Under the pieces are notes generated by a model that saw only the letters and a program-made list of their open reading frames with translations, had not been told where the DNA came from and ran no database searches. This document shows, piece by piece, positions 2 to 28,469 of a stretch of DNA of 64,000 nucleotides. Made by a program: the position numbers and the translations under genes. Origin of the DNA: a candidate division FCPU426 bacterium (GTDB lineage Bacteria > Oederibacteriota > JAAXVQ01 > JAUVAV01). The stretch covers positions 608,001-672,000 of the forward strand of contig JBFLYH010000001.1 in NCBI GenBank assembly GCA_040756875.1, given 5' to 3'. Positions within the stretch are counted from its first letter, which is position 1, and each line of letters opens with the position of its first letter.

Positions 2-1171
2 ATCAATCCCGCGGGCGGTGCCGGCGGCTGGAAGACGACCACGCCCTTGGCGCCAACGGCGCTGGCGCCTTCGCTCGGGCCGCGCTTCGACATGGCCGCT
101 TGTGTGGCATTCAATCGCATTTATCTTTTCGGCGGGCGCGATGCCACCGGCATTCCGCAGGATGACATCTTTTTCGCCACCATCAACGGCGACGGCACCT
201 TGGGGCCGTGGACCGAATTGATCACCTCGCCCCTCCCCTCGTTTTTGGCGGAACACCAAGTCTTGTTCACCAATGGCCGGTTTTACATCATAGGCGGAGC
301 GAACGAAACCGGATTGCTGCGCAACAGCGTTTACTACTGCACGGTGGATCCGGCCACGGGTTTGATTCCCGCGTTCCCCAACCCCGGGTCCTGGGAATTA
401 TCCAACACGACCCTGGAATATCCGGTTGCCGGTCACGCCGCAGTGGCCAACAACGGATTCATGTACGTGCTGGGCGGCCGGTATAATTCCGCGGATCCCC
501 ATACCTCCAGCGCTTATATGACCAGCATTGTCGATCTCTTCCAATCCATGGACATTTACTATGCCTGGGCCGGCACCTATGAGCGGTATATCGACCTTAA
601 CCGCGACCAGCTGATTCAAAATGTCGATTGGGTAGGGCAGGCCAATTTCGAAATTTTGCGGGTGAAATGCCGGTATGCCTTGGAGAAAGGGCAGTGGTCG
701 CCCTGGACGGCGGAGACCGACTTGGGCCCGCTGGACGTTCAACAGTTTGCCCGGTATATTCATTATAAAATCCGTCTGGAAACCCTCACCAATGAGCGGG
801 CGAACATCTATCGGACGCCGTTGATTTCTCAATTCGTGGTTGATTATGCCGAGACGAAACAGGTCGACAACGATAACTTCCAGATCAACCATAACCGCTT
901 CGATCCGCAGACCCAAACGCTGCTGATCACCTATAAAACCAGGGATCATTCAGTCAACGACGTCATTTTCAGGGTTTACAACCTCGAAGGAGAGCTGATC
1001 CGGAGGCAGGATATCACGATTCCGGCGGGAACCGCGTTGCCGGCCACCGGTTCCTGGATCTGGGACGGGACAAACGAAAACGCCGAGCAAGTGGCCAACG
1101 GCGTATACGTGATTCAATATAATTCGGGCAATACGCACAAACTGCGCAAGGTGGTCGTTTACAAACGCTGA
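2..1171 (+). CDS. Kelch-repeat beta-propeller protein with C-terminal FlgD-Ig/T9SS-CTD-like domain (5' partial)
   Basis: Frame is open from base 2. Kelch motifs RIYLFGG, RFYIIGG, FMYVLGG; C-terminus VYNLEGELIRR...WDGTNENAEQVANGVYVIQY...KVVVYKR. Confidence 0.8.
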   Translation: MNPAGGAGGWKTTTPLAPTALAPSLGPRFDMAACVAFNRIYLFGGRDATGIPQDDIFFATINGDGTLGPWTELITSPLPSFLAEHQVLFTNGRFYIIGGANETGLLRNSVYYCTVDPATGLIPAFPNPGSWELSNTTLEYPVAGHAAVANNGFMYVLGGRYNSADPHTSSAYMTSIVDLFQSMDIYYAWAGTYERYIDLNRDQLIQNVDWVGQANFEILRVKCRYALEKGQWSPWTAETDLGPLDVQQFARYIHYKIRLETLTNERANIYRTPLISQFVVDYAETKQVDNDNFQINHNRFDPQTQTLLITYKTRDHSVNDVIFRVYNLEGELIRRQDITIPAGTALPATGSWIWDGTNENAEQVANGVYVIQYNSGNTHKLRKVVVYKR

Positions 1172-1290
1172 CGGAACGGGCGCCTGAGGCGCCCCGAATT
1201 TTGCATGGATGGCCTGCCAACTTGGCCGGCGACGCGAGGCCTGCGGCGCGGTACACCCGCCCCGGGGCCCCCGACACAAAGGAGAGGGCT

Positions 1291-2238
1291 ATGCGTCAAT
1301 TGCTTGCTGGGCTCATGATTCTATTGCTGCTCCCCGCGGGTATGGTTTATGGCCGCGGCGTCGGCACTTCGGCCGCGAATTTTCTGAAGGTAGGCCAAGG
1401 GGCCAGACCTGCAGGCATGGGCAGCGCCTTCGTCGCCCTGGCCGACGACATCAACAGCCTGGAGTGGAACCCGGCCGGCTTGTCGCTGCTTACGCCGGAC
1501 TATTTTGATATGTCCTTTCAGCACTCGTTTTGGCTGGCTGATGTGGAGTATGAAATGTTGTCCTACGCCCAGTATTTGGGGGAAGCCTACGGCGCGGGAT
1601 TGATGCTGATGTACCGCCACATGCCCGATGTGGACAACAATCTCAGCGATGAGCAGCCCTTGCAGGTGTATGACTTTGCCGGCCAGCTTGGTTACGGTTT
1701 TCAAATTTCGAATTTCTCGGTGGGTTTGAACCTGAAAATCGTTACCACTCATCTGGGCACCGTGGATTTGACCGGCGAAGCCGTGGATTTGGGCATGCTG
1801 GTTCACTTCATGGAGCGCAAGCTCAACATCGGCCTGGTCATTCAAAACCTGGGCCCGGATGTTTCGAATGATTCGCTGCCCCTGGGCATCCGCGGCGGCT
1901 TCGGCTATAAAGACCTATTCGGTGAAAACAAGGAACACGCTTTCAATGCCGGCCTGGAAATCAACCAACCCTTGGACAACAAACTGAACCTCAATCTGGG
2001 CGCCGAATATTGGTATATGAAGACTTTTGCTCTGCGCCTCGGATTCCGCCAGCAATTGGGCGGCAATGACCTGCAGACAGATAATTTCCTGCACCGCATG
2101 ACGATCGGCACCAGCGTCGTATGGGCTGATCTGCAGTTGGATTATGCGTTCGCCTCGTTCGCCGACCTGGGCGCGACACATCGCCTCGCCCTCAAGCTCC
2201 ATTATGGTCCGCTGACGGACGAACTTAGCAAGTTTTGA
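1291..2238 (+). CDS. PorV/PorQ (UPF0164, FadL-like) family outer-membrane beta-barrel
   Basis: RBS AAGGAGAGGG before ATG 1291; signal peptide; signature [23 protein letters not shown]...WNPAGL; C-terminal [15 protein letters not shown]. Confidence 0.8.
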
Positions 2239-2351
2239 TTCTGCGCGGCGCTGACCCGGTTCGGGGGAATTGTTTTTTCCCTGACGCGGGAGGCGGCGCG
2301 ACTGAAAAAGGAGGAGGCGGCGGCGCAATCGGCCGTGGCGTTGAATCCACG

Positions 2352-3842
2352 ATGCGGATGAAGCGGTGGGGCGGGCTGAAGGCGGTTTTAGCCTTCGGTT
2401 TTGTAACGGCGATCATCGTGCCTTTTGAGGCGTGGGGTGCCGCACCGCCGACTGCCACTTTCACCGCAACCGATTCGCCGACAGAGACCATGACCGCGAC
2501 GGTAACCTCCACGCCGAGCCAAACCGGCACTTTCACCGTGACGCCGACCGATACGGCAACGTTTACGGTCACGCCGACATGGACCGTGACCTTTACGCCG
2601 ACGGACACGGCGACATTCACGCCGACATTCACGATTTCGCCCACCTCGACGGACACGGCGACGTCCACGGTCACCCGGACGTTTACCGTTACGCCCACGG
2701 ATACGTCCACCTTCACGGCCACGCCGACGATCACGCAAACACGGACCGACACCCCGACCTTCACTGTCACGCCGACGTTTACGGATACCTCCACCGCCAC
2801 GCCGACCCGCACCAGCACCGTGACGCGCACCTTCACCCATACCCCCACCCATACGCGGACCGCAACGCCTACGTTTACCGCCACGCCGACCTTTACGGCG
2901 ACGCCGACGTACACGCATACGCCGACGTTTACGGTCACGCGCACGGACACGGCCACGTTCACGGTCACGCCGACGGATACGCCGACATTTACGGTTACCC
3001 CCACGCGGACAGCCACGCCGACGCGGACGCATACGCCGACCTTTACCATGACGCCGACGGATACGCCGACGTTCACGGCCACACCGACATTCACGGCGAC
3101 GCCGACGCGGACGGCCACGCCGACGTTCACGATGACGCCGACGGACACGCCGACGCGGACTTTCACGCCGACCTTTACCATGACGCCGACGGATACGCCG
3201 ACGCGCACACATACACCGACGTTCACGGCCACGCCAACGTTTACGATGACGCCGACGGATACGCCGACGTTCACAGCCACGCCGACGGATACGCCGACGT
3301 TTACGGCGACACCGACGTTTACGGCGACGCCGACGCGGACAGCTACACCGACGCATACGCCGACGTTTACGGCGACGCCAACGCGAACAGCCACGCCGAC
3401 GCACACGCCGACGTTCACGGCGACGCCGACGCGAACGGCCACGCCGACACATACGCCGACGTTTACCGTCTCTCCTACTTCCACGCATACACCCACTGTG
3501 ACCACGACACCGACGATCACGCCGACGAATACGCCGACCACCACGGCTGAACCCGCTCGTAATCTTGACCGTCTGGTGGTCTATCCCAATCCCTATATCG
3601 AACGTTTCTCGTATTTCAAACGGATTACATTCGTTTATCTGACGTATCAGGCCCATGTCCGGGTCTATACCCTGACCGGGGATCTGGTGTGGGAAGGGGA
3701 AAAGAACAACGGCTCGGACCGTCTGGATTGGGTGGGCATACAAAATATGTCGGGCAACCGTCTGGCCTCGGGCATTTATCTGTATATCGTTACGAACAAT
3801 CAAGGGGAACGCAAGACGGGAAAAATAGCCATCGTGCGATAA
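2352..3842 (+). CDS. Secreted Thr/Pro-repeat (mucin-like) protein with T9SS type A-like C-terminal sorting domain
   Basis: Signal peptide MRMKRWGG...EAWG; ~365 aa of TxTxTP repeats; CTD VVYPNPY...[11 protein letters not shown]...[10 protein letters not shown]...KIAIVR. Confidence 0.8.
2451..3546 (+). repeat. Coding low-complexity repeat (ACN-NNN hexamer periodicity, frequent acgccg; TPTFTATPT-type units)
   Basis: Thr at almost every second codon; degenerate tandem units visible in the DNA. Confidence 0.9.
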
Positions 3843-3876: not shown

Positions 3877-5760
3877 ATGTTTAATCGAACCGTGGGGCGG
3901 ACAAGCAAGGGAACTCGTTTGGTATGGCTGATGGCGGGACTATTCTGGCTCGCCTCGAATGCCGCGTGGGCGGAAGGCGAGGGTACGGCGGGAGCGCCAT
4001 TTTTGAAAATAGGCACTTCAGCCAGGGCGGAAGGCATGGGAGGCGCCTTCACCGCCGTCGTGGATGACGTCGATTCGACGTATTGGAACCCGGCCGGATT
4101 GATGCGCCTAAAACGCAGCAGCATCGGATTGACGCATCTTGAGTGGTTTGAGGACATTCGGTACGAATACATCTCCTATGCCGACAAGTATGATTATATC
4201 GGAGCGGTGGGCGTCGGTTTGGGGTTCCTGTATCTCGGCGACATTCCCAAGACCCTGGAGTCCCCCTCGGGCGACTATGACGCCGCCAACAGCGGCGGGA
4301 CCTTCGGTGCCTCCGACCTATTGCTCAACTTGGCCTGGGCGGGCAACCTGGGTCTTCAGGAAAACAAGCTCGGCATCGGGGTTAAAATCATCAACGAAAG
4401 CATTGATGAAAACCAGTCGTTTAGCTTCGGCGTGGATCTGGGCGACCAACTGCTGCTCTCGAAAACCAGATGGTACCGCAATCTGGCTGAAAAAAGCGCC
4501 GCGGCTTATTTCATTCCCTCCATGTTGGGCGTTTCGTTCAAGAACATCGGAACCCCGGTCAAGTTTTTCAACCAGAACGACCCCCTCCCGCTCACGGCAT
4601 CCTTCGGTTTGGCTTATCAATTCCTGGAAGAAGATTTGAACGTCGCCCTCGATTTTGATTATCAAACCGTCGAAAGCCTTTTGATTATCCGGGCAGGCGG
4701 AGAATACTGGATCCATACCGGCATTCGAGGAGCGCCGGATCAGATGCTGGATGTGGCCGTGCGCGGCGGTTACCGTACGGGATATGACGCCTCCAGCGCG
4801 CCAGGTTTTTCACTGGGCGCAGGCCTTCGCTATGCCAGCCTGGGTTTGGATTATGTTTATATGCCTTTCGGCGATTTGGGAGTCACGCATCGTATTTCCC
4901 TGAAATTTTCCTGGGGTGATATCCTGAAGGACAAAGCGCCGCCGAAACGCAAACGCGTCGTGAAACGCCAGTTGACGGCTTCGGAGCGCGCGTTGCAGGA
5001 ACGGGCCCAGCAAATGGTGAAATCGAAGAAATCCATGGAAGGCAAAGTGGTGGTGCAAAAGAGTCCGGAAGCCATGCGTTCCATGACGGCTGTGGAGGCC
5101 AAGAAACCGGAAGACCAGGCCGTGGTCAAGGAGACGCAGGAGTTGGGCGCCCCGGTGACGGGTAAAACGCTGGACAAGAGCGCGGCCACCGGCGCCATTA
5201 TCGCGGGGTCGGGGAAACCGACCAGAATCGACAGCGAGTTGATCGAACAAATCGCGCGCGGCCGGCAAACGTCGGACGGCCGGACGCGTTCACAGTATGT
5301 CCGCCGCTCGCAGGAAGATGCCGCCAGACAAGCGCGGCGGGAAGCCGAACAGGTGAGCCAGGCGTTCGACGAAGTCGAAGAAGCGGCCAAGGAAGACGCC
5401 CAGCAGACCAAATCGAAACTGGTCACACGCACGACGGTCTATTTCGCCAAAAACAGCGGCAAACTGAACAATCAATACCTGTTTGCCCTGGACAAGATCG
5501 CCGCTTCGTTCGACAAGTCGCCGCAGCGCACGATACTGGTCCACGGCTACACCTCGTCGGATGAAACCAATCCGGCCGGATTGTCCATGGAACGCGCCAA
5601 GGCGGTCAAAGACTATCTGGTGCAAATGAAGAGCATCCCCAGCAACAAGATATCCATCAAAGGTTTTGGAGACAAGGATCCGGTGGCCAGCAACAGCGAT
5701 TCTAATGCGCGCGCCCGCAACCGCCGTGTGCGGGTCCAGATCGTGAAGGCCGGCAACTGA
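3877..5760 (+). CDS. PorV/PorQ-like barrel fused via a charged linker to a C-terminal OmpA-like peptidoglycan-binding domain
   Basis: RBS GGAGGG; FLKIGTSARAEGMGGAFTAVVDD...WNPAGL; C-terminus VYFAKNS...LSMERAKAVKDYLV...GFGDKDPVASN...RNRRV. Confidence 0.8.
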   Translation: MFNRTVGRTSKGTRLVWLMAGLFWLASNAAWAEGEGTAGAPFLKIGTSARAEGMGGAFTAVVDDVDSTYWNPAGLMRLKRSSIGLTHLEWFEDIRYEYISYADKYDYIGAVGVGLGFLYLGDIPKTLESPSGDYDAANSGGTFGASDLLLNLAWAGNLGLQENKLGIGVKIINESIDENQSFSFGVDLGDQLLLSKTRWYRNLAEKSAAAYFIPSMLGVSFKNIGTPVKFFNQNDPLPLTASFGLAYQFLEEDLNVALDFDYQTVESLLIIRAGGEYWIHTGIRGAPDQMLDVAVRGGYRTGYDASSAPGFSLGAGLRYASLGLDYVYMPFGDLGVTHRISLKFSWGDILKDKAPPKRKRVVKRQLTASERALQERAQQMVKSKKSMEGKVVVQKSPEAMRSMTAVEAKKPEDQAVVKETQELGAPVTGKTLDKSAATGAIIAGSGKPTRIDSELIEQIARGRQTSDGRTRSQYVRRSQEDAARQARREAEQVSQAFDEVEEAAKEDAQQTKSKLVTRTTVYFAKNSGKLNNQYLFALDKIAASFDKSPQRTILVHGYTSSDETNPAGLSMERAKAVKDYLVQMKSIPSNKISIKGFGDKDPVASNSDSNARARNRRVRVQIVKAGN

Positions 5761-5791: not shown

Positions 5792-7159
5792 ATGAGTCCG
5801 ATCTTCGACAAGGATAAAGACAAAGAAAAAAAGGACAAGGTTCCGGCCGAGGAGGAACGCCGAGAGTCCAAACTGGTTTCCTCCTACAACCTGACCTACG
5901 AGCAGATCAAGAAACAGGAGATGGGGGAGACCGGCGAGGAGAAAAAAACGGCGGCGCCGGCCCCTGCCGAACCGGCAGCCGAAGCGAAAAAGAAGCCGGC
6001 CGGACGCTTCTCCCGTTTGACTTCCCAGTTCAAACAAGTGGACGTCAAAGGCGCGATCGGAACCATTAAGTCCCAGCAGGCGCTGCTGAGTGGATGGATG
6101 ACCTGGCTGAAGGAACACAAGCTGGTCGCCATCGTCGGGATCGTAGTCATCGGGATGGTGTTGGCCTGGGGCGTTTCCCAGCTCTTTTTCGGCGGCAAAA
6201 AGAAACAAACCGAGGAAGCGGGTGGAGTGGCAGTTGCCGATCTGGGCACTCGCGTCAATGTCTTGAAGATCACCAAGACGGATTTTTCGGATTCCATCCT
6301 GGCCATGGGAACGATCAAGGGGTTTGCCCAGGTTAATCTGGGTTTTCAGATTTCCGGTGTGATTTCCGCCTTTTATTTCCGGGAAGGCGACGAGATTAAA
6401 GCCGGCCAAATCATCGCCCAGTTGGATCCGCAGGAGCAAATGCTTAAATATGAACAGGCCAAGGTTAATTATACCAACGCCCAGTCTCTCTATGATTTGG
6501 GCGCCATCATACCGTCCAAACTCGAGGAAGCGAAAATCAATCTGGAACTGGCCCAAAATGAACTGGGCAAAACGGCAATTATCGCGCCGTCGGACGGCAT
6601 CCTCGGCAGCCGCGACGTGGAAGTGGGCAGTGCCATCAACCCCAATCTGAAGGTGGGAACCTTCCTGGACATCGACGACGTATTCGCGGAAGTGGGGATC
6701 ATGGAACGCGAAATCAACAAAGTCGTGCTCGGCCAGTCCGTGAAAATCAACGTGGACGCCTATCCGGACCTTGATTTCGGCGGTACGGTGACGAACGTGG
6801 CGCCCATGGTAAAAGGGAAGAGCAAAACGCTCAATGTCAAAGTGCAGATTGCCAATCCCTACCGATTGCTGCTGCCTGGCATGTTCGTCCGCGTCCGCGT
6901 GAAAATATTCGAAACGAAAAACGCCATCATTATCCCCCGGCCTGCTTTAAAAAAGGTGAAGGGGGCCTACCATGTTTTTACGGTGAACCAGAACAACAAA
7001 GCGGAATTCAAGACGGTAAAATTGGGATATGTCACCACGGATAATGTGCAGATCACCGAGGGCCTGAATGAAGGCGAATTGGTGGTCGTGGAAGGCATGG
7101 AGGAGTTGAAGGACGGTTCCAAAGTCCAAATTATGGAATATCAAAGCGCGGCTTTTTAG
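5792..7159 (+). CDS. RND efflux membrane fusion protein (periplasmic adaptor) with N-terminal cytoplasmic extension
   Basis: RBS GAGGAGG; single TM; lipoyl halves (ISGVI..., IIAPSDGIL); LLPGMFVRV; GLNEGELVV. Confidence 0.9.
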   Translation: MSPIFDKDKDKEKKDKVPAEEERRESKLVSSYNLTYEQIKKQEMGETGEEKKTAAPAPAEPAAEAKKKPAGRFSRLTSQFKQVDVKGAIGTIKSQQALLSGWMTWLKEHKLVAIVGIVVIGMVLAWGVSQLFFGGKKKQTEEAGGVAVADLGTRVNVLKITKTDFSDSILAMGTIKGFAQVNLGFQISGVISAFYFREGDEIKAGQIIAQLDPQEQMLKYEQAKVNYTNAQSLYDLGAIIPSKLEEAKINLELAQNELGKTAIIAPSDGILGSRDVEVGSAINPNLKVGTFLDIDDVFAEVGIMEREINKVVLGQSVKINVDAYPDLDFGGTVTNVAPMVKGKSKTLNVKVQIANPYRLLLPGMFVRVRVKIFETKNAIIIPRPALKKVKGAYHVFTVNQNNKAEFKTVKLGYVTTDNVQITEGLNEGELVVVEGMEELKDGSKVQIMEYQSAAF

Positions 7160-7183
7160 CGTCCGCCCAAGGAGAATAGATCC

Positions 7184-10100
7184 GTGCTTGGCAATGCGCC
7201 CCGTTTAGCGGTCCGGCGTCCTGTTTTGGTGGCCATGATTTTTGTGGCTATCATTTTGTTGGGCGTCATTTCCTACATGCGCCTGCCCCGCGAGCTGTTT
7301 CCTCCCATTACATTCCCGCAGCTTACGGTCATGACCAATTATGAAAATGCAGCGCCCGAAGAAATTGAAGTGCTGATCACCAAGCCCATTGAAGAGGCAT
7401 GCAGTTCGGTCAACAACATCAAACGCATCAGTTCGACCTCCCGCGAAGGCGTTTCGCTGGTCATGCTTGAATTCGGCTGGGGCACGTCCATGGATTTTGC
7501 GGCCTTGAACGTCCGCGAAAAGATCGACTTGGTCAAGGAAAAGCTGCCTCGGGATTCCGAGGACCCGATCGTCATGAAATTCAACCCCTTTGAGCTCCCG
7601 GTCATGACGCTTTCGGTATCCGCCGACCTGCCGCTCTATGAAATACGTGAAATTTCAAAAAAAATAATTAAAAACCAGCTGGAAAAGGCTGAAGGAGTGG
7701 CTGCGGTACAGATCACGGGCGGCCTGGAGCGGGAAATTCTCGTCACCCTGGATTTGGGCCGTCTCAATGCGGCCAAGCTTTCCTCGCTGTCCGTTATGGA
7801 AGCCTTGAAGAATTCGAACGTCAATTATCCGGCAGGCACCATCCATGGGCATTTTTACGATTATCTGATCAGAACCATGGGCGAATTTACCTCGCTGGAG
7901 GATATTGAAGCTTCGCCTGTGGGATTGGATAAAAGCGAGGAATACGAGGCCCAGGAACAGCAAGAACTCAACATCACCCAAACACCGCTCACCGAACCGT
8001 CGGACGAGGAAAAACGCCTGGTCGACAACCGGGTGGTGCTGCTCAACGATGTAGGTGAAGTGCACGACGCCTTCAAAGACATCACTTCGATTTCCAGGTA
8101 TAATGGGCGGGAAAACGTTTCCGTTACGGTACAGAAACAGGCCGGAAGCAACACCTTGCAGGTGGTGGAAAACGTAAAGAAAGCTCTGAAATTGCTGAAA
8201 TCCGATCTGCCCAAAGGGCGAAATATCCGGATTACCACGGTATATGACCAGTCGATTTTCGTGCGCCAGTCCATCAATCGTGTTTTTGAAGATGCCATCG
8301 TCGGAGGCATCCTGGCTTTTCTCGTTATCCTGATTTTCCTCCGCAACTTGCGCAGTTCGACCATTGTCATCACCTCTATTCCTACCTCGATTCTGGCCAC
8401 TTTCTCGTTGATGTATTTTTCCGACATCACTCTGAACATGATGTCGTTGGGCGGTTTGGCGTTGGGCATCGGACGATTGGTCGACGATGCCATCGTAGTC
8501 ATAGAAAACATTTACCGTCATTGCCAGCTGGGCTTGAAACCCAAGGAAGCGGCGGTTGTGGGGGCCAGCGAAGTCTCCAATGCCATCATCGCTTCTACGC
8601 TGACTACAATCGTCGTTTTTCTTCCGATGATCTTTGTCAAGGGAGTAGCAGGCCAGCTTTTTTCACATATGGCCTTGACCGTCACTTTTTCTTTGCTCGC
8701 CTCCATGATTGGCGCCATGCTTTTAATACCCATGCTGGTATCCCGGGGCGGGGAAAACCAGTTACAGGAACTTCAATTTTTGCGCTTTTTTGAGAAGTTT
8801 TTAGACAAGGTGGAAGCGTTTTTCCTCAACGTGCTTCATTGGTTCCTCAATAACAGAATGAAATCCTTGGGTTCCGTCTTGATTGTGTTCGTCGCCAGCA
8901 TGTTCCTGGTTATCCCCATTAAAAAGGAATTCATGCCCAAGGTTGACCAAGGCCAGTTTGTCATTAAAATCAATCTTCCGACAGGCGCCTTGATCTCGGT
9001 GACCGATCGCGTGGCCCATCAGTTGGAGGACGTGTTGCTTTCGACGCCGGAAATCTACGACGTTACGCTGAACGTCGGTTCGTCCAAAGACGACGAACTC
9101 GGGCAAACGGCCGAATCCATGGGGCCGCATCAGGCGACGGTAATGGTCAACCTCAAGAAAGAACGCAAACGTTCGACCACGGACGTTGTGCAGGAGGTAA
9201 AAGCCCGGGTGGAAAAGGTAGATACCGGTCCGGCCCGCTTTGAGTATATGGTGCAGGACAGCGCCTTACAGGTTTCGGCCTTCACCGGTGGCGCACCGGT
9301 AGCGGTCATCATCAAGGGCCCGGACCTCAATCTAATGGAAAAAATGACCAAAGACATCGAAATGATGTTGATGGAAATCAAGGGTATCTACGGCATTAAA
9401 AACAGTTTGGTGGAGGAGGCGCCGGAGACAAAAGTCTATATTCAACGCGACAAAGCCGCGCTGTATAATTTATCCGTGGATGACATCTCCCGCACCGCCA
9501 AACTGGCCATAAAAGGCAATACGGAGACCAAGTTCAAGGAGCCCGGCAAAGACGAAGTGGATATACGCGTACGGCTGCGCGAGGAAGACCGCTCCAATGT
9601 GGCGGATCTGCGCCAGCTTTTCATCCATTCGCCGTTGGAAATGCAGGTGCCGCTGAACGAAGTGGCATACATCGGGGTGGGTGTGGGTCCGTCCGAAATC
9701 CGCCGTCAGGACCGGCAGCGGTACATCATGGTGACTGCCAACCTTTATAAGCGAAGCCTCAATGAAGTCATCACCGAACTACGAACCCGGCTCGCCAAGT
9801 ATCCCATTCCCGACCAGTATTTCATCGATTTCAGCGGCGAAAGCGAGCAAATGGCGGAATCGTTTCAAAGTCTGGTGTTCGCCCTCGCGCTCGCGATCCT
9901 GCTCGTCTATATGATTATGGCCTCGCAGTTCGAGTCACTCATTCAACCCTTCATCATCATGTTTTGCGTGCCCCTGTCCCTAATCGGCGTCATGTTGATT
10001 CTCTTTTTAACGGCCACGCCCATCTCGATCGTTGTTATTATCGGCATGATCATGTTAATCGGGATTGTTGTGTCCAATGGCATCATCCTCATTGATTACA

Positions 10101-10399: not shown

Positions 10400-10402
10400 T
10401 CC

Positions 10403-13492: not shown

Positions 13493-13514
13493 ACCTCGCT
13501 CACAGGAGAATACT

Positions 13515-15464: not shown

Positions 15465-15465
15465 C

Positions 15466-15496: not shown

Positions 15497-15522
15497 CGGA
15501 GAACCCTCGGCAGGTTCCCCCC

Positions 15523-15552
15523 TTGACAGTGCCGCGAGCCTATCAGTATAAT
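15523..15552 (+). promoter_or_regulatory. Sigma70-type promoter of the hom operon
   Basis: TTGACA (15523-28), 18 nt spacer, TATAAT (15547-52). Confidence 0.8.
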
Positions 15553-15636
15553 GCCGCTTTAAAAGTCGCCTTCGTGTTTGGCAAATAAAGGGAAAACCGC
15601 GCAGGGAAGGCCAAGAAAAGGGGACGGGAGTTCGCG

Positions 15637-18049: not shown

Positions 18050-18051
18050 AA

Positions 18052-19317: not shown

Positions 19318-19319
19318 GG

Positions 19320-20546: not shown

Positions 20547-20638
20547 TTGCATAAAGGCTTAAAATAAGGGGATTTTCTCGCCGTTACACTTGACGGGGTA
20601 ATGAGGCCCGAAGGGGTCGTTAGGATCAAGAGGGATCA

Positions 20639-20962
20639 ATGCTTGACGTTAATGATCAGACGTTCGACCGGGAAGTAATCAAATCAGAAAGCCTGGTGGT
20701 CGTGGACTTTTGGGCTGCCTGGTGCGGACCCTGCCGCATGCTGGCACCGGTCGTGGAAGAATTCGCCCGCGATTACCAGGGGCGTTTGAAAGTATTCCGC
20801 CTGGACGTGGATGCCAATCCCAATGCTGCCGGGCGTTTTGCGATACGGTCCATCCCGTCCCTGCTTTTTTTTAAAAACGGCCGGCTGGTTAACCAGTTGG
20901 TCGGCGCCTGTACAAAATCCAAAATGGCATCAATTGCCGATGAAATTCTGGGCGGCCGATGA
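20639..20962 (+). CDS. trxA: Thioredoxin
   Basis: DFWAAWCGPC; IRSIP. Confidence 0.95.
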   Translation: MLDVNDQTFDREVIKSESLVVVDFWAAWCGPCRMLAPVVEEFARDYQGRLKVFRLDVDANPNAAGRFAIRSIPSLLFFKNGRLVNQLVGACTKSKMASIADEILGGR

Positions 20963-21903
20963 GTGATCCGGCTGCAGGCATCGACATCCTCATCATAGGC
21001 GGCGGCCCGGCCGGGCTCGCAGCCGGCTTATATGCGGTCCGGACCGGCCGTTCGGTGCTGCTGCTGGAGCAATTCGTGCCCGGCGGCCAAGTGGGGAATA
21101 CCTGGCAGGTCGACAATTATCCCGGGCTGGCGCATATTTCAGGCCCGGATCTTATGCAGAAGATGGAAAGCCAGGTTCGGGATCTCGGCCTGACCATAGA
21201 AACTTCGCCAGTAACCGGAGTAACCCCCGGGCCGATCCACACGGTTCATACGCCAGCAAAGGATTATTCCGCCCGGACGGTGATCCTGGCCGTGGGTGCT
21301 GTGCCCAAACCACTTGGGATTCCGGGCGAACAAGAATACCGCGGACGGGGCGTTTCGTATTGCGGAACTTGCGATGGCCCCTTTTTCCGCCAGCAGCCAG
21401 TGGCGGTCATCGGGGGTGGTAATACTGCTCTGGAAGAAGCTGAATTTTTAACTCGTTTTGCCTCCAAAGTTTACCTTGTACACCGACGCCCCCAATTCCG
21501 CGCCGACCACATTGTCCAGGAACATGTCCTGAAGAACCCGAAAATCGAAATCGTCACTCCCTATGTTCCGCAGGAGGTTCTCGGAAAGGAACAGGGCGTG
21601 ACCGGATTGAGGATCAGCCACCGCGAACAACCCGAGTGCCGCGATCTGGAAGTGAAAGGGGTCTTTGTGTTTGTGGGATGGACGCCCCAAACCGAGGCGT
21701 TTCGAAAGACCGTGGATTGCGATGATGAAGGATATATCCGGACTGATCAAACTTTCGGCACTTCGGTGCCTGGAATCTTTGCCGCCGGGGATTGCAGGGC
21801 CAACCTGCTCAAACAAATCGTGGTCGCGGCCGGGGAAGGCGCGACCGCCGCGGTCATGGCTGACCGGTTTCTGGCGACCCATGCCGCCCCGGCTCGAAAA
21901 TAA
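20959..21903 (+). CDS. trxB: Thioredoxin-disulfide reductase
   Basis: GGGPAG; GVSYCGTCDG; GGGNTALEEA; VHRR; AAGD. Confidence 0.95.
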   Translation: MSDPAAGIDILIIGGGPAGLAAGLYAVRTGRSVLLLEQFVPGGQVGNTWQVDNYPGLAHISGPDLMQKMESQVRDLGLTIETSPVTGVTPGPIHTVHTPAKDYSARTVILAVGAVPKPLGIPGEQEYRGRGVSYCGTCDGPFFRQQPVAVIGGGNTALEEAEFLTRFASKVYLVHRRPQFRADHIVQEHVLKNPKIEIVTPYVPQEVLGKEQGVTGLRISHREQPECRDLEVKGVFVFVGWTPQTEAFRKTVDCDDEGYIRTDQTFGTSVPGIFAAGDCRANLLKQIVVAAGEGATAAVMADRFLATHAAPARK

Positions 21904-21990: not shown

Positions 21991-23334
21991 ATGCGCCATA
22001 TTTTAAGCGCCTTATTGGCCGGTGTCTTGTTTTTCTGCGGCGCGGTTTCTCAAGGCGCCCAAGTGGAATACCGCTCTGCCCGCATGAGCAACGCGTTTTT
22101 AGATGTGGGAGTCGGCGCCCGGGGCGTCGCTTTGGGAGAGGCCTTCACAGGCGCAGCGGATGACGTGTCCAGTTTGTACTGGAATCCCGCGGGACTGGGG
22201 CACCTGCGCGCCTGGCAGGTGCAATTGATGCACAACCTGTGGTTTGCGGGCATCAGCCAGGAGTTTGCCGCCTGCGCCATACCCCTGGGCCGCGGAACCG
22301 CCGGCGTTTCGGTCAGCTGGTTCAATTATGGAGAACTGACACGGGCCGACGAGTTCGGCAGGGATTTGGGCCAGTTCAATGCGTATGATCTTAATCCGGG
22401 CATTGGGTACGGCCAGCAGTTTTCCCCCTTTTTCAGCGGAGGGGCCGCTCTTTATATTCCCGTCTCAATGATCGATGACTCGTCGCAAATCTCTTTTGCC
22501 CTCACGCTCGGCGCCCAATATCAATTGCCCAGTTATTCGCCCCTGACCCTCGGCCTGACGGTTCGCAATCTCGGGAGCGGCATTGGGCATGGGTCCCAAC
22601 CCAGTCAGGTGCTCCTGGGCGCGGCCTGGACCGGCGCGTTTCCCGATTTGCGGTTGTCGCTGGATCTCGGCAAACGGCTGGCGGAGGATGTGACCAGCTT
22701 CAATCTGGGGGCGGAGTACAACTGGCAGGGGTTGCTGTGGCCCCGCCTTGGCTACCATTCCACCAATGAAACCAGCGGGTTGGGGAACGGTCTGGCCGGG
22801 TTGTCCGCAGGCGTGGGATATCACCAACCGCTCGGCGATCTGGTCTTGATCCTTGATTATGCCTTCGTGCCATACGGTGATTTGGGGGCCACCCATCGTC
22901 TGGCCATAAGCGTTGAATTCGGCTCGCTTCCCGCGGCCCAACCGTCAGCCGCGGTTCCTGCCGCTGCGCAAATCGCTCCGGCCAAGGCGGCTGCGCTTCC
23001 TCCCAAAACAACGGCAGCGCCGGTTCAGGCCGTTAAAACCGAAAAAGCGCCGGAAAAAGCGTCTCCCCCGGCCAAAGTGAAAGCCAAAACGTTGGGGCCC
23101 AAGATCAAGCTGTCCTGGCAACCCGGGCCGTCGGCCGCGGCAGGATATCAAGTATTCATGAAATCCGGCGCCAAAGGCCGGTATGAACGCCTGAATGCCC
23201 ACCCCGTGCAACGGGAAGAATTCACCACCAAAACGCTGAAACGCAAACGGACGTATTATTTCCAAATCAAGGCCGTTGACCGGCAGGGGCGCTTGAGCGA
23301 GGCTTCGCCGGAGCTGAAAGTCTATTTGAAGTAA
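21991..23334 (+). CDS. PorV/PorQ-like barrel with Ala/Pro/Lys linker and C-terminal fibronectin type III-like domain
   Basis: FLDVGVGARGVALGEAFTGAADD...WNPAGL; DYAFVPYGDLGATHR; FN3 pattern KLSW...GYQV...TYYFQIKAVDRQGRLS. Confidence 0.78.
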   Translation: MRHILSALLAGVLFFCGAVSQGAQVEYRSARMSNAFLDVGVGARGVALGEAFTGAADDVSSLYWNPAGLGHLRAWQVQLMHNLWFAGISQEFAACAIPLGRGTAGVSVSWFNYGELTRADEFGRDLGQFNAYDLNPGIGYGQQFSPFFSGGAALYIPVSMIDDSSQISFALTLGAQYQLPSYSPLTLGLTVRNLGSGIGHGSQPSQVLLGAAWTGAFPDLRLSLDLGKRLAEDVTSFNLGAEYNWQGLLWPRLGYHSTNETSGLGNGLAGLSAGVGYHQPLGDLVLILDYAFVPYGDLGATHRLAISVEFGSLPAAQPSAAVPAAAQIAPAKAAALPPKTTAAPVQAVKTEKAPEKASPPAKVKAKTLGPKIKLSWQPGPSAAAGYQVFMKSGAKGRYERLNAHPVQREEFTTKTLKRKRTYYFQIKAVDRQGRLSEASPELKVYLK

Positions 23335-23382
23335 AACGTCGCCTCTGACTTCATGCTGAGCATTCAAAGAGGAGGGGTAAAT

Positions 23383-25215
23383 ATGCACAAGCAAGGGATG
23401 AAAAAAATGATTTGGCTGGCCTGCGCTGCCTGGCTGGCCCTGCCGGCAGCCACCTGGGCGGCGTATTCCTGGGTGATCGAAGGAGGCGGTACGCTGAATT
23501 CGGACAATACCCGGGACGGCGCGTTCGGCTCCCTGGCCAGCGACGGCACGCAAATGTATACCGCCTACATCGAAAACATCGCCCAACCGACTCCTCCTTC
23601 CAGGTTCTGGGTCTATGTGAAGTTTTACAACGGTTCGGGCTGGCAAATGGTGGGGAACACCACCTGCAGCTATACCACGGGCCGGTCATGCAAATATCCT
23701 GACATCATCGCCGCGGGCACCAACAATCTCTGGGTGGCTTTCCCGCAATTCGACGCCGGTGGAAACACCTATACCACCCAGCTGGCCATTTCCCACTGGA
23801 ATGGTTCCGATTGGAACCAGAAGTGGTCCCTGCGGCATGACGACGGCTACTGGTGTGAATTTCCTTCCGTTGCCCAATACAACGGCACGCCGTATGTCGT
23901 CTGGCAGGAGAACACCCGCGGGAATGGGTACGACTTTAACGGCCACATTTATGCCGCGCGCCTGAACGGCAGCACATGGGATTTCCTGGGCGGGAATTTG
24001 GACACTTATTCTGGCGGGGAATACGCCACCACGCCGGATGTCTGCGTGGATCCGGCCACCGGGGTCCCTTACGCGACCTATATCGACAGCAATAATGTCT
24101 ATGTGAAGAAGTGGAACGGCAACGATTGGGAACAAGTCGGCGGGCAAGTCAATGTCGGACATTATTACGCCTACAATCCCACCATTGACCATGACGGGAC
24201 CCATCTGGTGGTCACTTACAGCCACTGGTATTCCGGATACATGGTTCGGATTTACGTGCACCGTTGGAACGGCTCGAGCTGGGAACAGATTGGAAATGCG
24301 CTTAACAACGACACCAGCCACGATGCCTGGTATCCTATCGTCAAACTCTACGGCGGAGCCATGTATGTGGCGTTTGAAGAGAGCTTTTATTATCCCAATG
24401 CCTTCAATTATCTTAAAACCTTTAATGGCACCAGCTGGGAAACCCTGGCCGGCGCCCTGTCATACGATGTCTCCCAAAATGTCTTTGAGCCGGACATGGC
24501 CTTCCATAACGGCGTGCCGTACGTGACGTGGTACGAGCCGCTGGCAGGGCCCGGAACCAACCTGGCCTATACCGCCCGTTTGGACAATGTCATCCCCACC
24601 TCGACCGTGACCTCCACGTTCACGATTACTCCCACGGTCACAGTCACCCCGACCTTGACGGAAACGGAGATTGTGACCGCAACACCCACTTCGACCATCA
24701 GCCCCACGGACACCCCCGTGCCGCCGGGTTCCACGGAAACCGACACGCCGACTTCCACGGAGACAGTCACCCGGACGTTCACAACCACGCCGACGCGGAC
24801 CATTTCGCCTACGCGCACGCCGACGCCCACTCATACTCCGGTGCTGAGCCCGACGATCACCCCGACCCCGACGGCCACGCAGACCATCTCCCGGACCGTA
24901 ACGCCCACGATCACGCTCACTCCCTATCCGATCCTCGATCAGGAAATCGTGGCTTACCCGAATCCGGCCAAAGACCGCGTGGTGTTCGCCTACCGCCTGG
25001 ATGCCGCCTCGGATGTTACGATCCGGATTTACGACCTGAACGGCAGCGAAGTGGCGCGCATCAACAATCCCGGCCAAGCCGTCAGCGCTGGTGCGCAAAG
25101 CGTCTGGACGCTGGAGAAAGCCGCCAGCGGCATTTATCTGGTGCGGGTAGTCATCGAGCCGTTGAACGGTTCGGCCAAACGCGAAAAGACCCTGAAAATT
25201 GCGGTTGTGAAATAA
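23383..25215 (+). CDS. Secreted Trp/Tyr-rich beta-propeller-like protein + T/P linker + T9SS type A-like CTD
   Basis: RBS GGAGG; signal peptide; repeats of (W/F)NG(S/N/T)xW; T/P linker ~24595-24924; CTD VAYPNP...IRIYDLNG...ASGIYLV...KIAVVK. Confidence 0.78.
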
Positions 25216-25222
25216 CCCGGAG

Positions 25223-26179
25223 GTGACGCACATGCACAAATCCTCGACTTGGTTGATTTTGGGAACCCTCGTGTTCTGTTGCGGCGGGACGCTGTGGGCG
25301 GAACAAGTGAATTTCGCAGCCGGCGAAACGGCGGCTGCTTATCTCAACCTGCCGGTGAACGCCAGGCAAACCGGCATGGCCGGCGCCGGCGTGGCCGTAG
25401 CCGACGATCTGGGGGCGCTGACCGTCAACCCGGCCGGTTTGAGCCGCATGCAGGGCGCTGAGCTTCAGGCGTTGCACGGCTTTTGGGTGCAGGATATTTT
25501 TTATGATTATTTGGCATTCGGCCAGCCCGTGGACGCGGGAACAGCGGTGGCCGCCAGCCTGGCTTACTTCAATTTCGGATCCATGGACAAATACGTCATG
25601 GATGCGATCGGCAATCCGGTGGCCCAAGGCACGTTCACACCGTATGTCTATTTGCTGACAGCCGGCGTGGGTCAGAGCGTGCTGCCTGAACTCGGCGTGG
25701 GGCTGAACCTTAAATACTTGTCGCAGAACATCGACACCAGTTCTTCCACGGCCTTTGCCGTCGACCTGGGCGCCGCCTACGCGACCGACATCAAGGGCTT
25801 GAACGTGGGCCTGACCTTGAGCAACATCGGCAGCGAACTGGACGGGAAATCATTGCCCCTGGACGTCAACCTGGGCGCCGCCTATCAGCTGGCACTGCAG
25901 GGATTGGGCCAGGACCAGCTCAATGTCACCGCCGAAGCGGCGATCCCCACGATGGCCAGCGATAATTACGACGTCATGCTCGGCGCTGAATACTGGTACA
26001 ACCGCCTCCTGGCCTTGCGCGTCGGGTATCAGCTGGATGCGGATGCCGGTTTGGGCGGGATCGAAGGGTTGACCGCCGGACTGGGGTTCAATTACCAGAT
26101 GTTGAGCGTTCAATTCGGGTTTACTTCCCTGGGTGTGCTTGGGGAAGTGTATCAAATCGGCTTGGGATTGAAACTGTAA
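25223..26179 (+). CDS. PorV/PorQ-like outer-membrane beta-barrel
   Basis: YLNLPVNARQTGMAGAGVAVADD...NPAGLS; GAEYWY..LALRVGY; C-terminal amphipathic strand; true start may be ATG 25232. Confidence 0.78.
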   Translation: MTHMHKSSTWLILGTLVFCCGGTLWAEQVNFAAGETAAAYLNLPVNARQTGMAGAGVAVADDLGALTVNPAGLSRMQGAELQALHGFWVQDIFYDYLAFGQPVDAGTAVAASLAYFNFGSMDKYVMDAIGNPVAQGTFTPYVYLLTAGVGQSVLPELGVGLNLKYLSQNIDTSSSTAFAVDLGAAYATDIKGLNVGLTLSNIGSELDGKSLPLDVNLGAAYQLALQGLGQDQLNVTAEAAIPTMASDNYDVMLGAEYWYNRLLALRVGYQLDADAGLGGIEGLTAGLGFNYQMLSVQFGFTSLGVLGEVYQIGLGLKL

Positions 26180-26204
26180 GCGTGGGAAGGGAAGGCGGAG
26201 CGTA

Positions 26205-28469
26205 ATGTCCAGCGGGATAGTGCGGCGCAGCCTCGGCGCGCTGGCGATAGTCATGGCGGGATGTCTTTCGGCGCAAGCCGGTCAAAATACCTGGACCAGC
26301 GCTGGGCCGGAAGGCGCCCGGGTTTTTCAGGCGGCCGTGGACCCGGGCAACTCCCTGACCGTGTTTTGCGCCCTGGGCGAAGGACTCTACCGCACCACGG
26401 ATCAGGGGCAAACCTGGGCGCCGCGCCAAACGGGGCTAGGCGCAGCACCGCGGATCCGAGATTTGGCCATGGATCCGACCAATGGCCAGCGGCTGTATTG
26501 CATCCTGGATAATGACGGCTTTTTCCGCACCCAGGACGGCGGTGCCACCTGGGTCCGACCCGCCGGCGGGATCAACTTTACCGGTCAGGCGCTGGACGGC
26601 ATCGAACTCTCGGCCGGTAATCCGAACATTCTCTATGTGTGGGCGGGCGCGCCGCCCGGGCACCTGTATTTGAGCACGGATTACGGCGATTCCTTCCGGG
26701 AAGTGGGCGGGCAGGGCCTGCCGCTCTCGCAAGGCCGCCTGACGAGCGTGCTGGCCAGCAGCGGCACTTCCAACACGCGGGAAGCTTTTGCGGGATTTGA
26801 CGACGGATTGGGACTGTACTTCACGGCGGACAGCGGCGAGCATTGGTTTCACCACACCGGGTCCATCGGGTATGAATTGCCGGATCCCCTGTCCGTGCTG
26901 TGGATCTGCGAATGTGCTGACACGGCTTTGTATACCTGGGTGGCCATCGGCACGCGGGACAATGCCGTCTGGGTCACGGACGGGTTCGGCGGCCGCTGGT
27001 TCAAGCGGGACGGCAATCTATCATCCAGCGACGACGTCTCGTACCTCTTCAGCCATCCGGCCGCACCGACCACGGTTTATGCCCTGGTGGATCGGAGCGA
27101 CGGCACCCGGAATTTGCTCCGTTCCACCTGGTCCATCACGCCCAGCAACTGGTATTGGAGCACGGTTGAAACCGGCACGGACTCCCTCCGGTTATCTGGT
27201 CCGGATTCGGGTTCAGGCGCGCTGTGGAGCGTCGGGGAATCCGGGTTAAGGTATTCGGAAAACCAGGGAAGTTCCTGGACCAGCCGGATGGGTGGCATAT
27301 ACCAATCCTATGTCACCTCGGTAAGCCAAGGAGCAGGGCACCTGCTGGCGATCATTGGGAACAAGCAATTGGCCTGGAGCCCGGACTTGGGATCGAGCTG
27401 GCAGTCGCTTTCCCATCCTGCCTGGCCTCTGAAAGACAGCTTGGTGATTCCCGCCGCTGTTCCGGCCGGCGTGGATACGTTGCTGCTGGCGACGGATGGC
27501 GGCGGCATCCAGGAGAGTGTCACTACGGGCACGGCGTGGTCCGGCGTGTCTTTTGCCCTGCCGTCGGTTAGCCTGCTGGCTCCGGGAACCAACACGAATA
27601 CATGTTTCGCCGTTACGCCGGCTGGCGAGATCTATATCGGTCAGAAACAGGGGAGTTTTTCCTGGATCTGGACCGCTATGGATGACGGGCTTCCGGCTTC
27701 CCTGACAATCACCGGGATGGCCCAGGATCCGCATGTAACGGAAAACTGGTTTCTTTTCACCTCTGACCGGCAACTCTGGCGGAAATCTGGGGATGCCGAT
27801 TGGCAGCAGGTGACGGCCTGGCAGAATCAGGCGCAAATTTACAGTTTGGCCTTTGATCCGGTCATCCCCGATTCGCTGTATGTCAGCACGGATCAAGGTG
27901 TGTTTTTCAGCGCGGACCAGGGCGCTTCCTGGGGTTCACTGGGGCTGACCTCGCAAACCGTGACTGGAGTTGCCGCCTACCGAAACAGCATTGTCTATGC
28001 AGCCACGCGCGCCCAGGGGGTTCATTGGAAATACCGTCCCGGGGCCACCTGGGACGGCATGACCACGGGATTTCCGGCCAACGGCGAAATCCTGGACTTC
28101 ACGCTGGCCCAGGAATCCCAAACCTTGGTGGCTGCCGTGGCTGATCATGGCGTCCAGGTTTACACGGTGACCGGAGTCAGTCCGGTGGAACCGGATGCCT
28201 CTTCTCAGGCTGGCTGCAAAGTGTTTCCCAATCCGGCCACCGGCGAGATGTTCCAAGTCCGCTTCAATGCCACGGAAACCGGGGAGGCGCAAATCGCGGT
28301 TCTGAACATTGCCGGCCGTCTGGTGACCCAGACCCGCCAGACCGTGGTTTCCACCGGCCTCCAACTGGCGGTCATGGAACTGGGCCGCATGGCCAATGGC
28401 ATTTATATTGTCGTGGTGCGGGTGAACGATAAACAGGTGGGAACCGTCAAGCTCGCGGTCAAACGCTAG
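26205..28469 (+). CDS. Secreted BNR/Asp-box (sortilin/GH74-like) beta-propeller protein with T9SS type A-like CTD
   Basis: Asp-boxes RTTDQGQTW, RTQDGGATW, STDYGDSF, TADSGEHW, SADQGASW; CTD VFPNPA...NIAGRLV...MANGIYIV...KLAVKR. Confidence 0.8.
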   Translation: MSSGIVRRSLGALAIVMAGCLSAQAGQNTWTSAGPEGARVFQAAVDPGNSLTVFCALGEGLYRTTDQGQTWAPRQTGLGAAPRIRDLAMDPTNGQRLYCILDNDGFFRTQDGGATWVRPAGGINFTGQALDGIELSAGNPNILYVWAGAPPGHLYLSTDYGDSFREVGGQGLPLSQGRLTSVLASSGTSNTREAFAGFDDGLGLYFTADSGEHWFHHTGSIGYELPDPLSVLWICECADTALYTWVAIGTRDNAVWVTDGFGGRWFKRDGNLSSSDDVSYLFSHPAAPTTVYALVDRSDGTRNLLRSTWSITPSNWYWSTVETGTDSLRLSGPDSGSGALWSVGESGLRYSENQGSSWTSRMGGIYQSYVTSVSQGAGHLLAIIGNKQLAWSPDLGSSWQSLSHPAWPLKDSLVIPAAVPAGVDTLLLATDGGGIQESVTTGTAWSGVSFALPSVSLLAPGTNTNTCFAVTPAGEIYIGQKQGSFSWIWTAMDDGLPASLTITGMAQDPHVTENWFLFTSDRQLWRKSGDADWQQVTAWQNQAQIYSLAFDPVIPDSLYVSTDQGVFFSADQGASWGSLGLTSQTVTGVAAYRNSIVYAATRAQGVHWKYRPGATWDGMTTGFPANGEILDFTLAQESQTLVAAVADHGVQVYTVTGVSPVEPDASSQAGCKVFPNPATGEMFQVRFNATETGEAQIAVLNIAGRLVTQTRQTVVSTGLQLAVMELGRMANGIYIVVVRVNDKQVGTVKLAVKR

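Follow-up and report, generated by a model that had tools for sequence, protein, structure and literature searches.

We analysed a 64,000-nucleotide stretch of bacterial DNA (G000:C1:608001-672000, referred to as the window) carrying two clusters of genes in which outer-membrane barrel proteins related to PorV and PorQ from type IX secretion systems (T9SS) alternate with proteins that end in an Ig-like C-terminal domain (CTD). The host genome, G000, comprises 3.22 Mb in 7 contigs and has a completeness rating of 100%. The CTD proteins are referred to as cargos, and both barrels and cargos are numbered in their order along the window. The eight genes are the following.

2..1171, + strand: cargo 1, the 3' part, held in the window, of a gene for a 1071-aa protein (G000:C1:605956-609171)
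1291..2238, + strand: barrel 1, a PorV/PorQ-family outer-membrane barrel with a signal peptide and without an extension (NF033709, 155.9 bits)
2352..3842, + strand: cargo 2, which has a signal peptide followed by a low-complexity stalk rich in Thr and Pro (~400 aa), with its CTD at 3585-3839 (TIGR04183, 26.6 bits)
3877..5760, + strand: barrel 2, a PorV/PorQ-family barrel with a charged linker and a C-terminal OmpA domain (NF033709, 154.4 bits)
21991..23334, + strand: barrel 3, a PorV/PorQ-family barrel with an Ala/Pro/Lys linker and a C-terminal Fn3 domain (NF033709, 146.5 bits; fn3, 27.5 bits)
23353..25215, + strand: cargo 3, a signal peptide and an N-terminal domain without a confident family match, joined through a Thr/Pro linker to the CTD (24958-25212; TIGR04183, 33.4 bits)
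25223..26179, + strand: barrel 4, a PorV/PorQ-family barrel alone (NF033709, 170.0 bits)
26205..28469, + strand: cargo 4, repeats of Sortilin/BNR type (F510_1955-like glycosylhydrolase family) between a signal peptide and a CTD (TIGR04183, 38.8 bits)

An earlier note, made from the letters of this stretch, had placed the eight genes at these positions on the plus strand and had described an alternation of barrels and CTD proteins, and both were borne out. Each of the four barrels has a signal peptide and the N-terminal pattern ..(F/Y)L..G.(G/S)AR..(A/G)(M/L)G.A..A..DD.....NPAGL; the barrel signature given in the note is thus present in all four, with the correction that barrel 4 reads YL where FL had been given. 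The cargo tails it had listed (KVVVYKR, KIAIVR, KIAVVK and KLAVKR) are present, as are (Y/F)PNP in cargos 2 to 4 and GxY in all four. The order of the genes is also as described, cargo-barrel-cargo-barrel in the first cluster and barrel-cargo-barrel-cargo in the second, but the second is less aptly divided into two barrel-cargo pairs than into barrel 3, then cargo 3 with barrel 4, then cargo 4, because the unit that recurs throughout the genome is a cargo followed by a barrel. Upstream of barrel 3 there is a thioredoxin reductase gene and no CTD gene, and cargo 3 begins 18 bases downstream of this barrel; a paralogue of barrel 3, C3_204569, has the identical architecture and gene order. Only 7 bases separate the stop codon of cargo 3 from the start of barrel 4. 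No barrel stands behind cargo 4, and the next gene is on the opposite strand.

The passengers of the four cargos, meaning the parts ahead of their CTDs, are mutually unrelated. Cargo 1 carries Kelch repeats ahead of a CTD at ~914-1168, and the repeats of cargo 4 match Sortilin-Vps10 with 54.6 bits and NF045728 with 113.2 bits, the latter below its cut-off of 175. The open frame of cargo 2 begins at 2235, and its start is probably the ATG at 2352, which stands ahead of the signal peptide. Two long antisense open frames in this region (2225-3544 and 2388-3803, minus strand; 439 and 471 aa, Val/Gly-rich and Arg-rich) were rejected as genes, since they are artefacts of reading through the repeats that encode Thr and Pro in cargo 2. 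A sequence scan found terminator-like sites in both clusters at or below the counts in shuffled sequence, and promoter-like sites modestly above them (6 vs 2.5 and 7 vs 2.8); these sites do not delimit the transcription units.

Families of the barrels and of the C-terminal domains

All four barrels of the window belong to the PorV/PorQ family, with 146.5-170.0 bits on NF033709 (cut-off 90), and so do all 34 of the G000 barrels that we aligned. None reaches the cut-offs of the equivalog models for PorV (NF033710, 250 bits), PorQ (NF033711, 220 bits) or PorV2 (NF052325, 325 bits), for which the best scores among the window barrels were 89.6, 104.7 and 84.0 bits and the best E-values among the 34 aligned barrels were 2e-24, 1.3e-31 and 1.1e-24, respectively. 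The 34 barrels are mutually ~25-39% identical. A profile of them searched against the PDB gave Flavobacterium johnsoniae PorV with E 1.4e-36, and TodX followed with 1.4e-5. The AlphaFold model of barrel 4 (pLDDT 93.2, predicted TM-score 0.88) was closest to PorV in fold, with a TM-score normalised to the query (TMq) of 0.81 against 8gl6_F, a PorV chain of a substrate-bound translocon, and 0.79 against 6h3i_F, as compared with 0.65 for FadL and 0.55 for BamG. The barrels are thus PorV-like and not generic FadL barrels, as had been proposed. FadL and BamG were rejected as identities on both sequence and fold, although barrel 4 has weak matches to Toluene_X (Pfam) and BamG (NCBIfam), and PorP/SprF was rejected at ≤23.6 bits on TIGR03519, the cut-off of which is 90.55. 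A search of wider sequence with a single barrel protein returned one distant related locus, in a marine metagenome-assembled genome.

The barrels differ in what follows the barrel domain. We found that 15 of the 43 barrels of G000 are barrels alone, while 28 have more than 100 residues after the barrel. According to Pfam these extensions comprise OmpA in 12 barrels (preceded in 6 of them by a FlgD_ig-type Ig domain), TPR in 8 (2 of them below the cut-off), Fn3 in 2 and a periplasmic binding-protein domain in 1; a further 2 have just an Ig domain, and 3 gave no match. The OmpA domain of barrel 2 spans residues 528-622 and scores 66.9 bits on PF00691. A barrel with an even number of strands has both termini on the periplasmic side, so the extension modules are expected to be periplasmic. 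PorE is described in PMC12773672 as having four domains, three of which are TPR, Ig-like and OmpA.

The CTDs resemble those of type A. Tested with the type A models (TIGR04183 / PF18962, cut-off 23 bits), cargos 2, 3 and 4 match at the extreme C-terminus, and in all four cargos the domain comes to within 3 residues of it; cargo 1 scores 19.0 bits on TIGR04183, below the cut-off, and is recognised by the profile built from the CTDs of G000 itself (E 2.8e-13), by FlgD_ig (22.1 bits) and by Por_Secre_tail (18 bits). Among 29 CTDs with a barrel gene behind them (paired CTDs), FlgD_ig matched 21, Por_Secre_tail 18 and CHU_C 9, the last weakly, at E ≤0.01. The model of the cargo 3 CTD is a compact Ig-like beta-sandwich (pLDDT 94.7; six strands of at least 3 residues by DSSP), and its fold matches include PorU (6za2, rank 2, 23% identity, E 5e-4) and PorZ (5m11, rank 11, 26% identity, E 5e-3), with E-values that are weak, as one would expect of an Ig-like domain this small. 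One CTD subclass, cargo 2 included, is best matched by the C-terminus of PorZ; for cargo 2 itself the match covers positions 663-757 of NF052228 with 56.4 bits, next to 26.4 bits for CHU_C. A type B identity was rejected, TIGR04131 having no matches, although the controls were silent as well.

Paired and unpaired CTDs differ in their motifs. The motif WDGxN..G..VAxGxY occurs in 11 of 31 paired vs 4 of 70 unpaired CTDs, and (Y/F)PNP in 17 of 31 vs 58 of 70. The paired CTDs also tend to group together: on a tree of 101 CTDs the paired label changes 13 times vs 26.7 in shuffles, a count as low being reached in none of 500 shuffles. The tree is poorly resolved, and the paired CTDs do not form a single clade.

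Pairing across the genome and in relatives

The pairing seen in the window extends over the whole of G000. NF033709 has 44 matches in this genome, and a profile built from these defines 43 barrel genes at E <1e-15; TIGR04183 has 72 matches, and the profile from the genome's own CTDs finds 102 proteins, in 101 of which the CTD lies within 3 residues of the C-terminus (the exception is a giant of 7689 aa). CTD proteins make up 8.7% of the genome and barrels 2.0%, together ~11%. The adjacency of the two gene classes that the earlier note had seen in the window is, over the genome, far above chance: 32 of the 43 barrels begin directly behind a CTD gene on the same strand, whereas barrels placed at random did so in 0.42 cases on average and never in more than 4 (2000 trials). 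The gap between cargo and barrel is exactly -4 bases, a 4-base overlap, in 16 of these 32 pairs and at most 40 bases in 29. When either side is considered, a CTD gene adjoins 36 of the 43 barrels, in 4 cases only on the downstream side (barrel 3 included), and 7 barrels have none on either side.

Paired barrels and CTDs share part of their history. Over 31 pairs, the distances between barrels are correlated with those between their upstream CTDs (Mantel Spearman r 0.33, reached by 1 of 5000 permutations), and for 10 of the 31 the closest paralogue of the barrel and the closest CTD are found together in one other pair. For barrel 4, the nearest paralogue has a cargo whose CTD is nearest to that of cargo 3. 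This co-diversification shows duplication and divergence of the pairs as units, without being proof of recognition.

Synteny is stronger evidence than this correlation that barrel and cargo belong together. The order cargo 1, barrel 1, cargo 2, barrel 2 is conserved in four genomes of the same family (G004, G005, G007 and G008) and in one of the same order (G011), where the sequence extends far enough. The barrel 2 orthologues of these five relatives are 61-75% identical to that of G000 and each stands behind a gene with a cargo-2-type CTD, and barrel 1 orthologues in 5 relatives each stand behind a cargo-1-like CTD gene. Cargo 2 orthologues keep the CTD while the length of the Thr/Pro stalk varies (open frames of 351-738 aa). 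In G014, of the same order, the barrel 2 orthologue comes 99 bases after the end of a cargo-2-type CTD that is 61% identical. Altogether barrel 2 has orthologues of 61-89% identity in 8 relatives, and cargo 2 precedes it in 6 of 8 assessable cases; in G013 the locus is split over two contigs. Outside the family, in G018 (single contig), a TIGR04183 match lies within 500 nt upstream of 16 of 35 barrels, compared with 0.13 for random placement. The expansion of barrels itself is found in all 61 sampled genomes of the phylum, with 8 to ~30 matches per genome when at most 29 candidates were scored in each.

Some genes of G000 depart from the simple pair. A 40-kb region (G000:C1:1393170-1432827, minus strand) holds nine CTD proteins of 303 to 3163 aa with three barrels interspersed; these cargos have mostly one CTD subtype, which recurs on unlinked cargos on contig C2. 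Two barrel-OmpA proteins without a CTD neighbour (G000:C2:666385-667794 and C2:227223-228986, both minus strand, 469 and 587 aa) are among the top PorV-family scorers and might serve the unpaired CTD proteins as carriers in general. Relatives, some of them in other families, carry frames of ~480 and ~590 aa that resemble these two, the orthology being judged by length and score only. The giant of 7689 aa (G000:C1:1006273-1030323, minus strand) has 12 matched CTD-like stretches, the last ending 43 residues before the C-terminus, and is followed after 12 bases by a 322-aa protein that matches only the C-terminal positions 107-282 of the 283-position barrel profile, on which barrel 1 of the window, for example, scores 296 bits. 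G018 likewise has an 8355-aa CTD protein upstream of a barrel.

A putative surface-display system and its alternatives

The earlier note had raised the possibility that a canonical T9SS core is absent, a suggestion that fails for the translocon and may hold for the motor and ring proteins. G000 encodes a divergent SprA/Sov homologue of 2111 aa (G000:C1:863,629-869,964, minus strand) that scores 224.2 bits on TIGR04189, above the cut-off of 200, and an SprA-like frame of ~1,700-2,300 aa was recovered from 40 of the 41 genomes sampled in the phylum, with 4 exceeding the cut-off by summed pieces. In profile searches that had no T9SS-bearing genome as a positive control, the PorK/L/M/N homologues GldK/L/M/N had no match in G000, and in 20 relatives GldM and GldN had none, GldL one weak match and GldK six that were far below threshold. 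GldM was also unmatched in G064, and none of the 14 control genomes has a T9SS. A PorU of full score was likewise not found in G000; the candidate is a 1188-aa protein with Peptidase_C25 (PF01364, 167 bits) and a CTD, which scores 84.3 bits on NF033707 against a cut-off of 420. This gene has no adjacent barrel, the nearest being C2_383578 and C2_500751, and C25 peptidases occur in 5 of 41 genomes of the phylum. PorZ was not found either, its model matching only CTD regions, at up to 58.3 bits against a cut-off of 260. Covalent anchoring of the sortase type is an unlikely general route because C25 peptidases are so rare in the phylum and no PorZ was found. By these gene contents, the conserved set consists of SprA, PorV-like barrels and CTD proteins, with motor, ring and sortase station either not detected or not conserved. 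For comparison, PMC11285876 states that several FCB phyla may have a T9SS and that others have none.

We favour, with modest confidence, the reading that the barrels are dedicated carriers and anchors that hold the tails of their cargos, and that together they form a genome-wide surface-display system built from T9SS parts. A cargo would have a Sec signal peptide for export and a C-terminal Ig-like domain of the type A CTD or FlgD_ig kind, and it would cross the outer membrane probably through the conserved, divergent SprA/Sov translocon. Its CTD would then be taken up by the PorV/PorQ-family barrel, of 14-strand type, that is encoded directly behind it on what would be the same transcript, often with translational coupling. 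The barrel would stay on the uncleaved CTD as a non-covalent membrane anchor, in the manner of PorQ with PorZ, PorV with PorU and PorP/SprF with type B CTDs; retention of the CTD, with the barrel as anchor, is probable because most of the phylum has no sortase station. The OmpA, TPR, Ig-like and Fn3 modules found among the 28 extended barrels may fasten the anchor to peptidoglycan or to periplasmic partners, which is the job that PorE does for PorP and which here would be fused into one chain. Cargos without a barrel of their own would probably rely either on barrels that go with their CTD subtype or on the seven orphans.

The individual elements of this reading have parallels in known systems. 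In Porphyromonas gingivalis the CTDs of PorU and PorZ, type A CTD proteins, are retained and held by PorV and PorQ, and the same review advances, citing PorZ and PorQ, the hypothesis that cognate PorV-like barrels protect CTDs from cleavage (PMC10202324, in the passages on these proteins). The barrels described here are of the same NCBIfam family, the CTD subclass of cargo 2 is best matched by the PorZ C-terminus, and the cargo 3 CTD matches PorU and PorZ, among others, in fold. In P. gingivalis, porU lies directly upstream of porV. The differences are that ~43 barrels are present here instead of two, that their partners are ordinary surface proteins and not parts of the machinery, that most pairs are gene-linked, and that many barrels are fused to OmpA, TPR, Ig-like or Fn3 domains. 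In addition, no barrel here is at the PorV or PorQ equivalog cut-off, PorZ was not found, and the C25 peptidase is rare and has no adjacent barrel.

The arrangement of genes resembles that of the type B systems. The passages of PMC12618676 on these systems describe type B substrates that are gene-linked to cognate PorP/SprF shuttles and PorE homologues and propose that they form static wall-anchored complexes (SprB-SprF and Fjoh_3952-3951-3950 in F. johnsoniae; PG1035-PorP-PorE in P. gingivalis); clustered substrate and barrel genes, crosstalk and orphans, and a peptidoglycan-binding partner are common to those systems and the one described here. By the same account, PorV recognises all type A CTDs, and it is only for type B CTDs that specialised, gene-linked barrels have been described. 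Here, however, the barrels are not PorP/SprF and the CTDs are not type B, and the TPR, Ig-like and OmpA modules are fused to the barrel instead of forming separate lipoproteins as in the PorE system. The PorV-SprA complexes of F. johnsoniae (PDB 6h3i, 8gl6) provide the closest solved structure and the closest sequence relative of the barrels, and an SprA homologue and Ig-like CTDs of type A kind are present here as well; they differ in that a single PorV serves all type A CTDs there (PMC12618676), while the barrels here are shorter and GldK/L/M/N were not found in the searches described above. FadL, TodX and BamG share the superfamily fold and the conserved N-terminal segment of NPA type, a FadL 'delta NPA' mutant being among the matched PDB titles, but they are much less similar in sequence and fold than PorV is, and linkage to CTD genes is no feature of these families. 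In the open-access and bioRxiv literature, where a phylum-specific paper could be missed, we found no description of expanded PorV/PorQ barrels gene-linked to type-A-like CTD proteins.

Several observations weigh against dedicated anchors, or against the strict form in which each barrel serves one cargo. A total of 70 of the 102 CTD proteins have no barrel behind them, and some paired CTDs fall in mostly unpaired clades, for example a 12-member clade around C1:1.39-1.43 Mb. In G001, of the same genus (L074, G001:C5:124000-131500), and in G012, of the same order (L069, G012:C14), barrel 1 is followed directly by barrel 2 (89% and 63% identical, respectively) with no cargo 2 between, and the best cargo-2-type CTD elsewhere in these genomes is 45-46% identical, which is the level of a paralogue. 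For barrel 4, not even the same genus offers a close orthologue (40% identity), and among 19 loci of its best relatives a gene with a terminal CTD lies directly upstream in 6, one is ambiguous and 12 have none. The barrels are also short in comparison with PorV: the barrel 4 model has 290 residues, as opposed to 345-367 modelled residues in PorV, with a TM-score normalised to the target (TMt) of 0.65-0.67, and the profile alignment shows the barrels to be without ~60 residues of PorV. Passages of PMC10994853 report that extracellular loops of PorV bind the CTD in F. johnsoniae. The same source describes the release of the carrier-substrate complex from SprA as an energy-requiring, motor-dependent step, and no motor genes were found here.

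These observations limit the proposal of the earlier note that each cargo has one dedicated barrel. Barrels are gene-paired with CTD cargos, but neither the many CTD proteins without a barrel nor the 7 barrels without a CTD neighbour fit a general one-to-one rule, and strict privacy for one cargo is at odds with clustered cargos that share a CTD subtype and a nearby barrel and with the persistence of barrel 2, at 89% identity, where cargo 2 is gone. In view of the losses of cargo 2, the relatives of barrel 4 without a cargo and the nine CTD genes that share three barrels, a barrel seems to go with a subtype of CTD, and crosstalk and orphans occur. Crosstalk and orphans are also reported for the type B pairs of F. 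johnsoniae (PMC12618676, in its discussion of these pairs).

We think it unlikely, though the strongest of the alternatives, that the barrels are cargo-specific but transient shuttles and not lasting anchors; like PorV with type A substrates, they would draw a cargo out of SprA and pass it along, to be released or attached in some other way. In passages of PMC12618676 and PMC10202324, PorV acts as a shuttle and the PorP/SprF proteins are termed specialised shuttles; 15 of the 43 barrels lack a periplasmic extension and could diffuse, and G000 does have a C25 peptidase with a CTD. The peptidoglycan-binding OmpA domain on 12 of the 43 barrels is a misfit with free movement, however, and no conserved acceptor station is seen, given the scarcity of C25 peptidases and the failure to find PorZ.

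It is distinctly less probable that the barrels are interchangeable generic carriers supplied stoichiometrically with each operon, so that the pairing would reflect dosage or co-expression and not recognition. The single plastic pocket of PorV handles all type A CTDs of F. johnsoniae (PMC12618676 and PMC10994853, in the parts that treat PorV), and the persistence of barrel 2 without cargo 2 in G001 and G012, the mixing of paired and unpaired CTDs in some clades and the majority of cargos without their own barrel would all be expected of such carriers. Against this stand the low mutual identity of the barrels, their co-diversification with the upstream CTD, and the conservation of orthologous CTDs while the length of the passenger stalk varies. 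Dosage alone would hardly account for 43 diverged paralogues.

We consider it very improbable that each barrel is itself the export or insertion device of the neighbouring cargo, in a two-partner-like manner that makes no use of SprA. Two-partner secretion operons do resemble the cargo-barrel order with overlapping genes, and the T9SS motor was not found in our uncontrolled searches. These barrels are, however, small and plugged, of FadL/PorV type with the conserved N-terminal NPAGL segment, and folded proteins, the longest of them with thousands of residues, would not be expected to fit through their lumen; moreover, an SprA homologue is kept in 40 of 41 genomes. It is scarcely credible that the barrels are FadL-type uptake channels or BamG-like accessory barrels of the barrel assembly machinery, placed near surface-protein genes for regulatory reasons only, for although FadL, TodX and BamG chains are among the fold matches and barrel 4 has weak Toluene_X and BamG matches, PorV is far better by both profile and fold, and linkage to CTD genes, co-diversification and synteny would be unexpected for uptake channels.

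The reading of the barrels as dedicated carrier-anchors bears on the fate of T9SS substrates past the translocon, where release, covalent attachment and retention by a barrel are the possible outcomes. It would extend the principle of the private barrel to type-A-like tails and PorV/PorQ-type barrels, on the scale of ~43 barrels and phylum-wide. With dozens of cognate pairs provided by nature, of which some are conserved and others evolve fast, rules of specificity should become readable, and a CTD with its barrel could serve as a modular tag-and-socket pair for surface display. G000 also offers a natural case of T9SS-like export with neither motor nor sortase detectable. A bolder version, which we put forward only tentatively and would not expect to hold in full, is that the phylum, an uncultured one, has as a whole a stripped-down type IX system composed of SprA and dozens of mutually orthogonal socket barrels, each for one tail or a small group of tails and many of them bolted to the wall, without the PorKLMN motor and ring or the PorU/PorZ station. 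If this were true, the CTD-barrel pairs would amount to a code of recognition, and the driving force of export would have a source different from the T9SS motor as known.

Other genes of the window

The region between the two clusters (5792-21903) is unrelated to them and contains an RND efflux operon, threonine-pathway genes, and the genes for thioredoxin and its reductase. The efflux operon (5792-15464, plus strand) starts with an HlyD-type adaptor (5792-7159) and ends with a TolC/OEP-type channel (13455-15464) whose first ~200 residues are acidic, Glu-rich and of low complexity; the two tandem pump genes between them (7184-10399 and 10403-13492), of ~1,050 aa each, appear AcrB-like on reading of their translations.

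Further along, the G+C content dips to 0.459 at 38001-40000, compared with 0.51-0.63 elsewhere in the window. The dip contains a gene for a 368-aa AAA-type ATPase (38789-39895) with weak AAA_16/ATPase_2 matches and may be a small foreign insert. The genes at 41493-48287 (plus strand) encode a TPR protein of 1020 aa whose N-terminus resembles YfiO/BamD, a protein of 584 aa without a Pfam match, a channel of the MotA/ExbB/TolQ family (46481-47161) and a 232-aa protein without a match. They may form an envelope module of Tol or Ton type, with no shown link to the barrels. Toward the end of the window there is a gene for a GGDEF-GAF protein (53738-55822), followed downstream by one for a double ATPase of KaiC type that carries a fused receiver domain (56017-57912, plus strand). 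Two histidine kinase genes come next, up to 62115 on the same strand; one of the kinases has a periplasmic solute-binding domain and the other has GAF.

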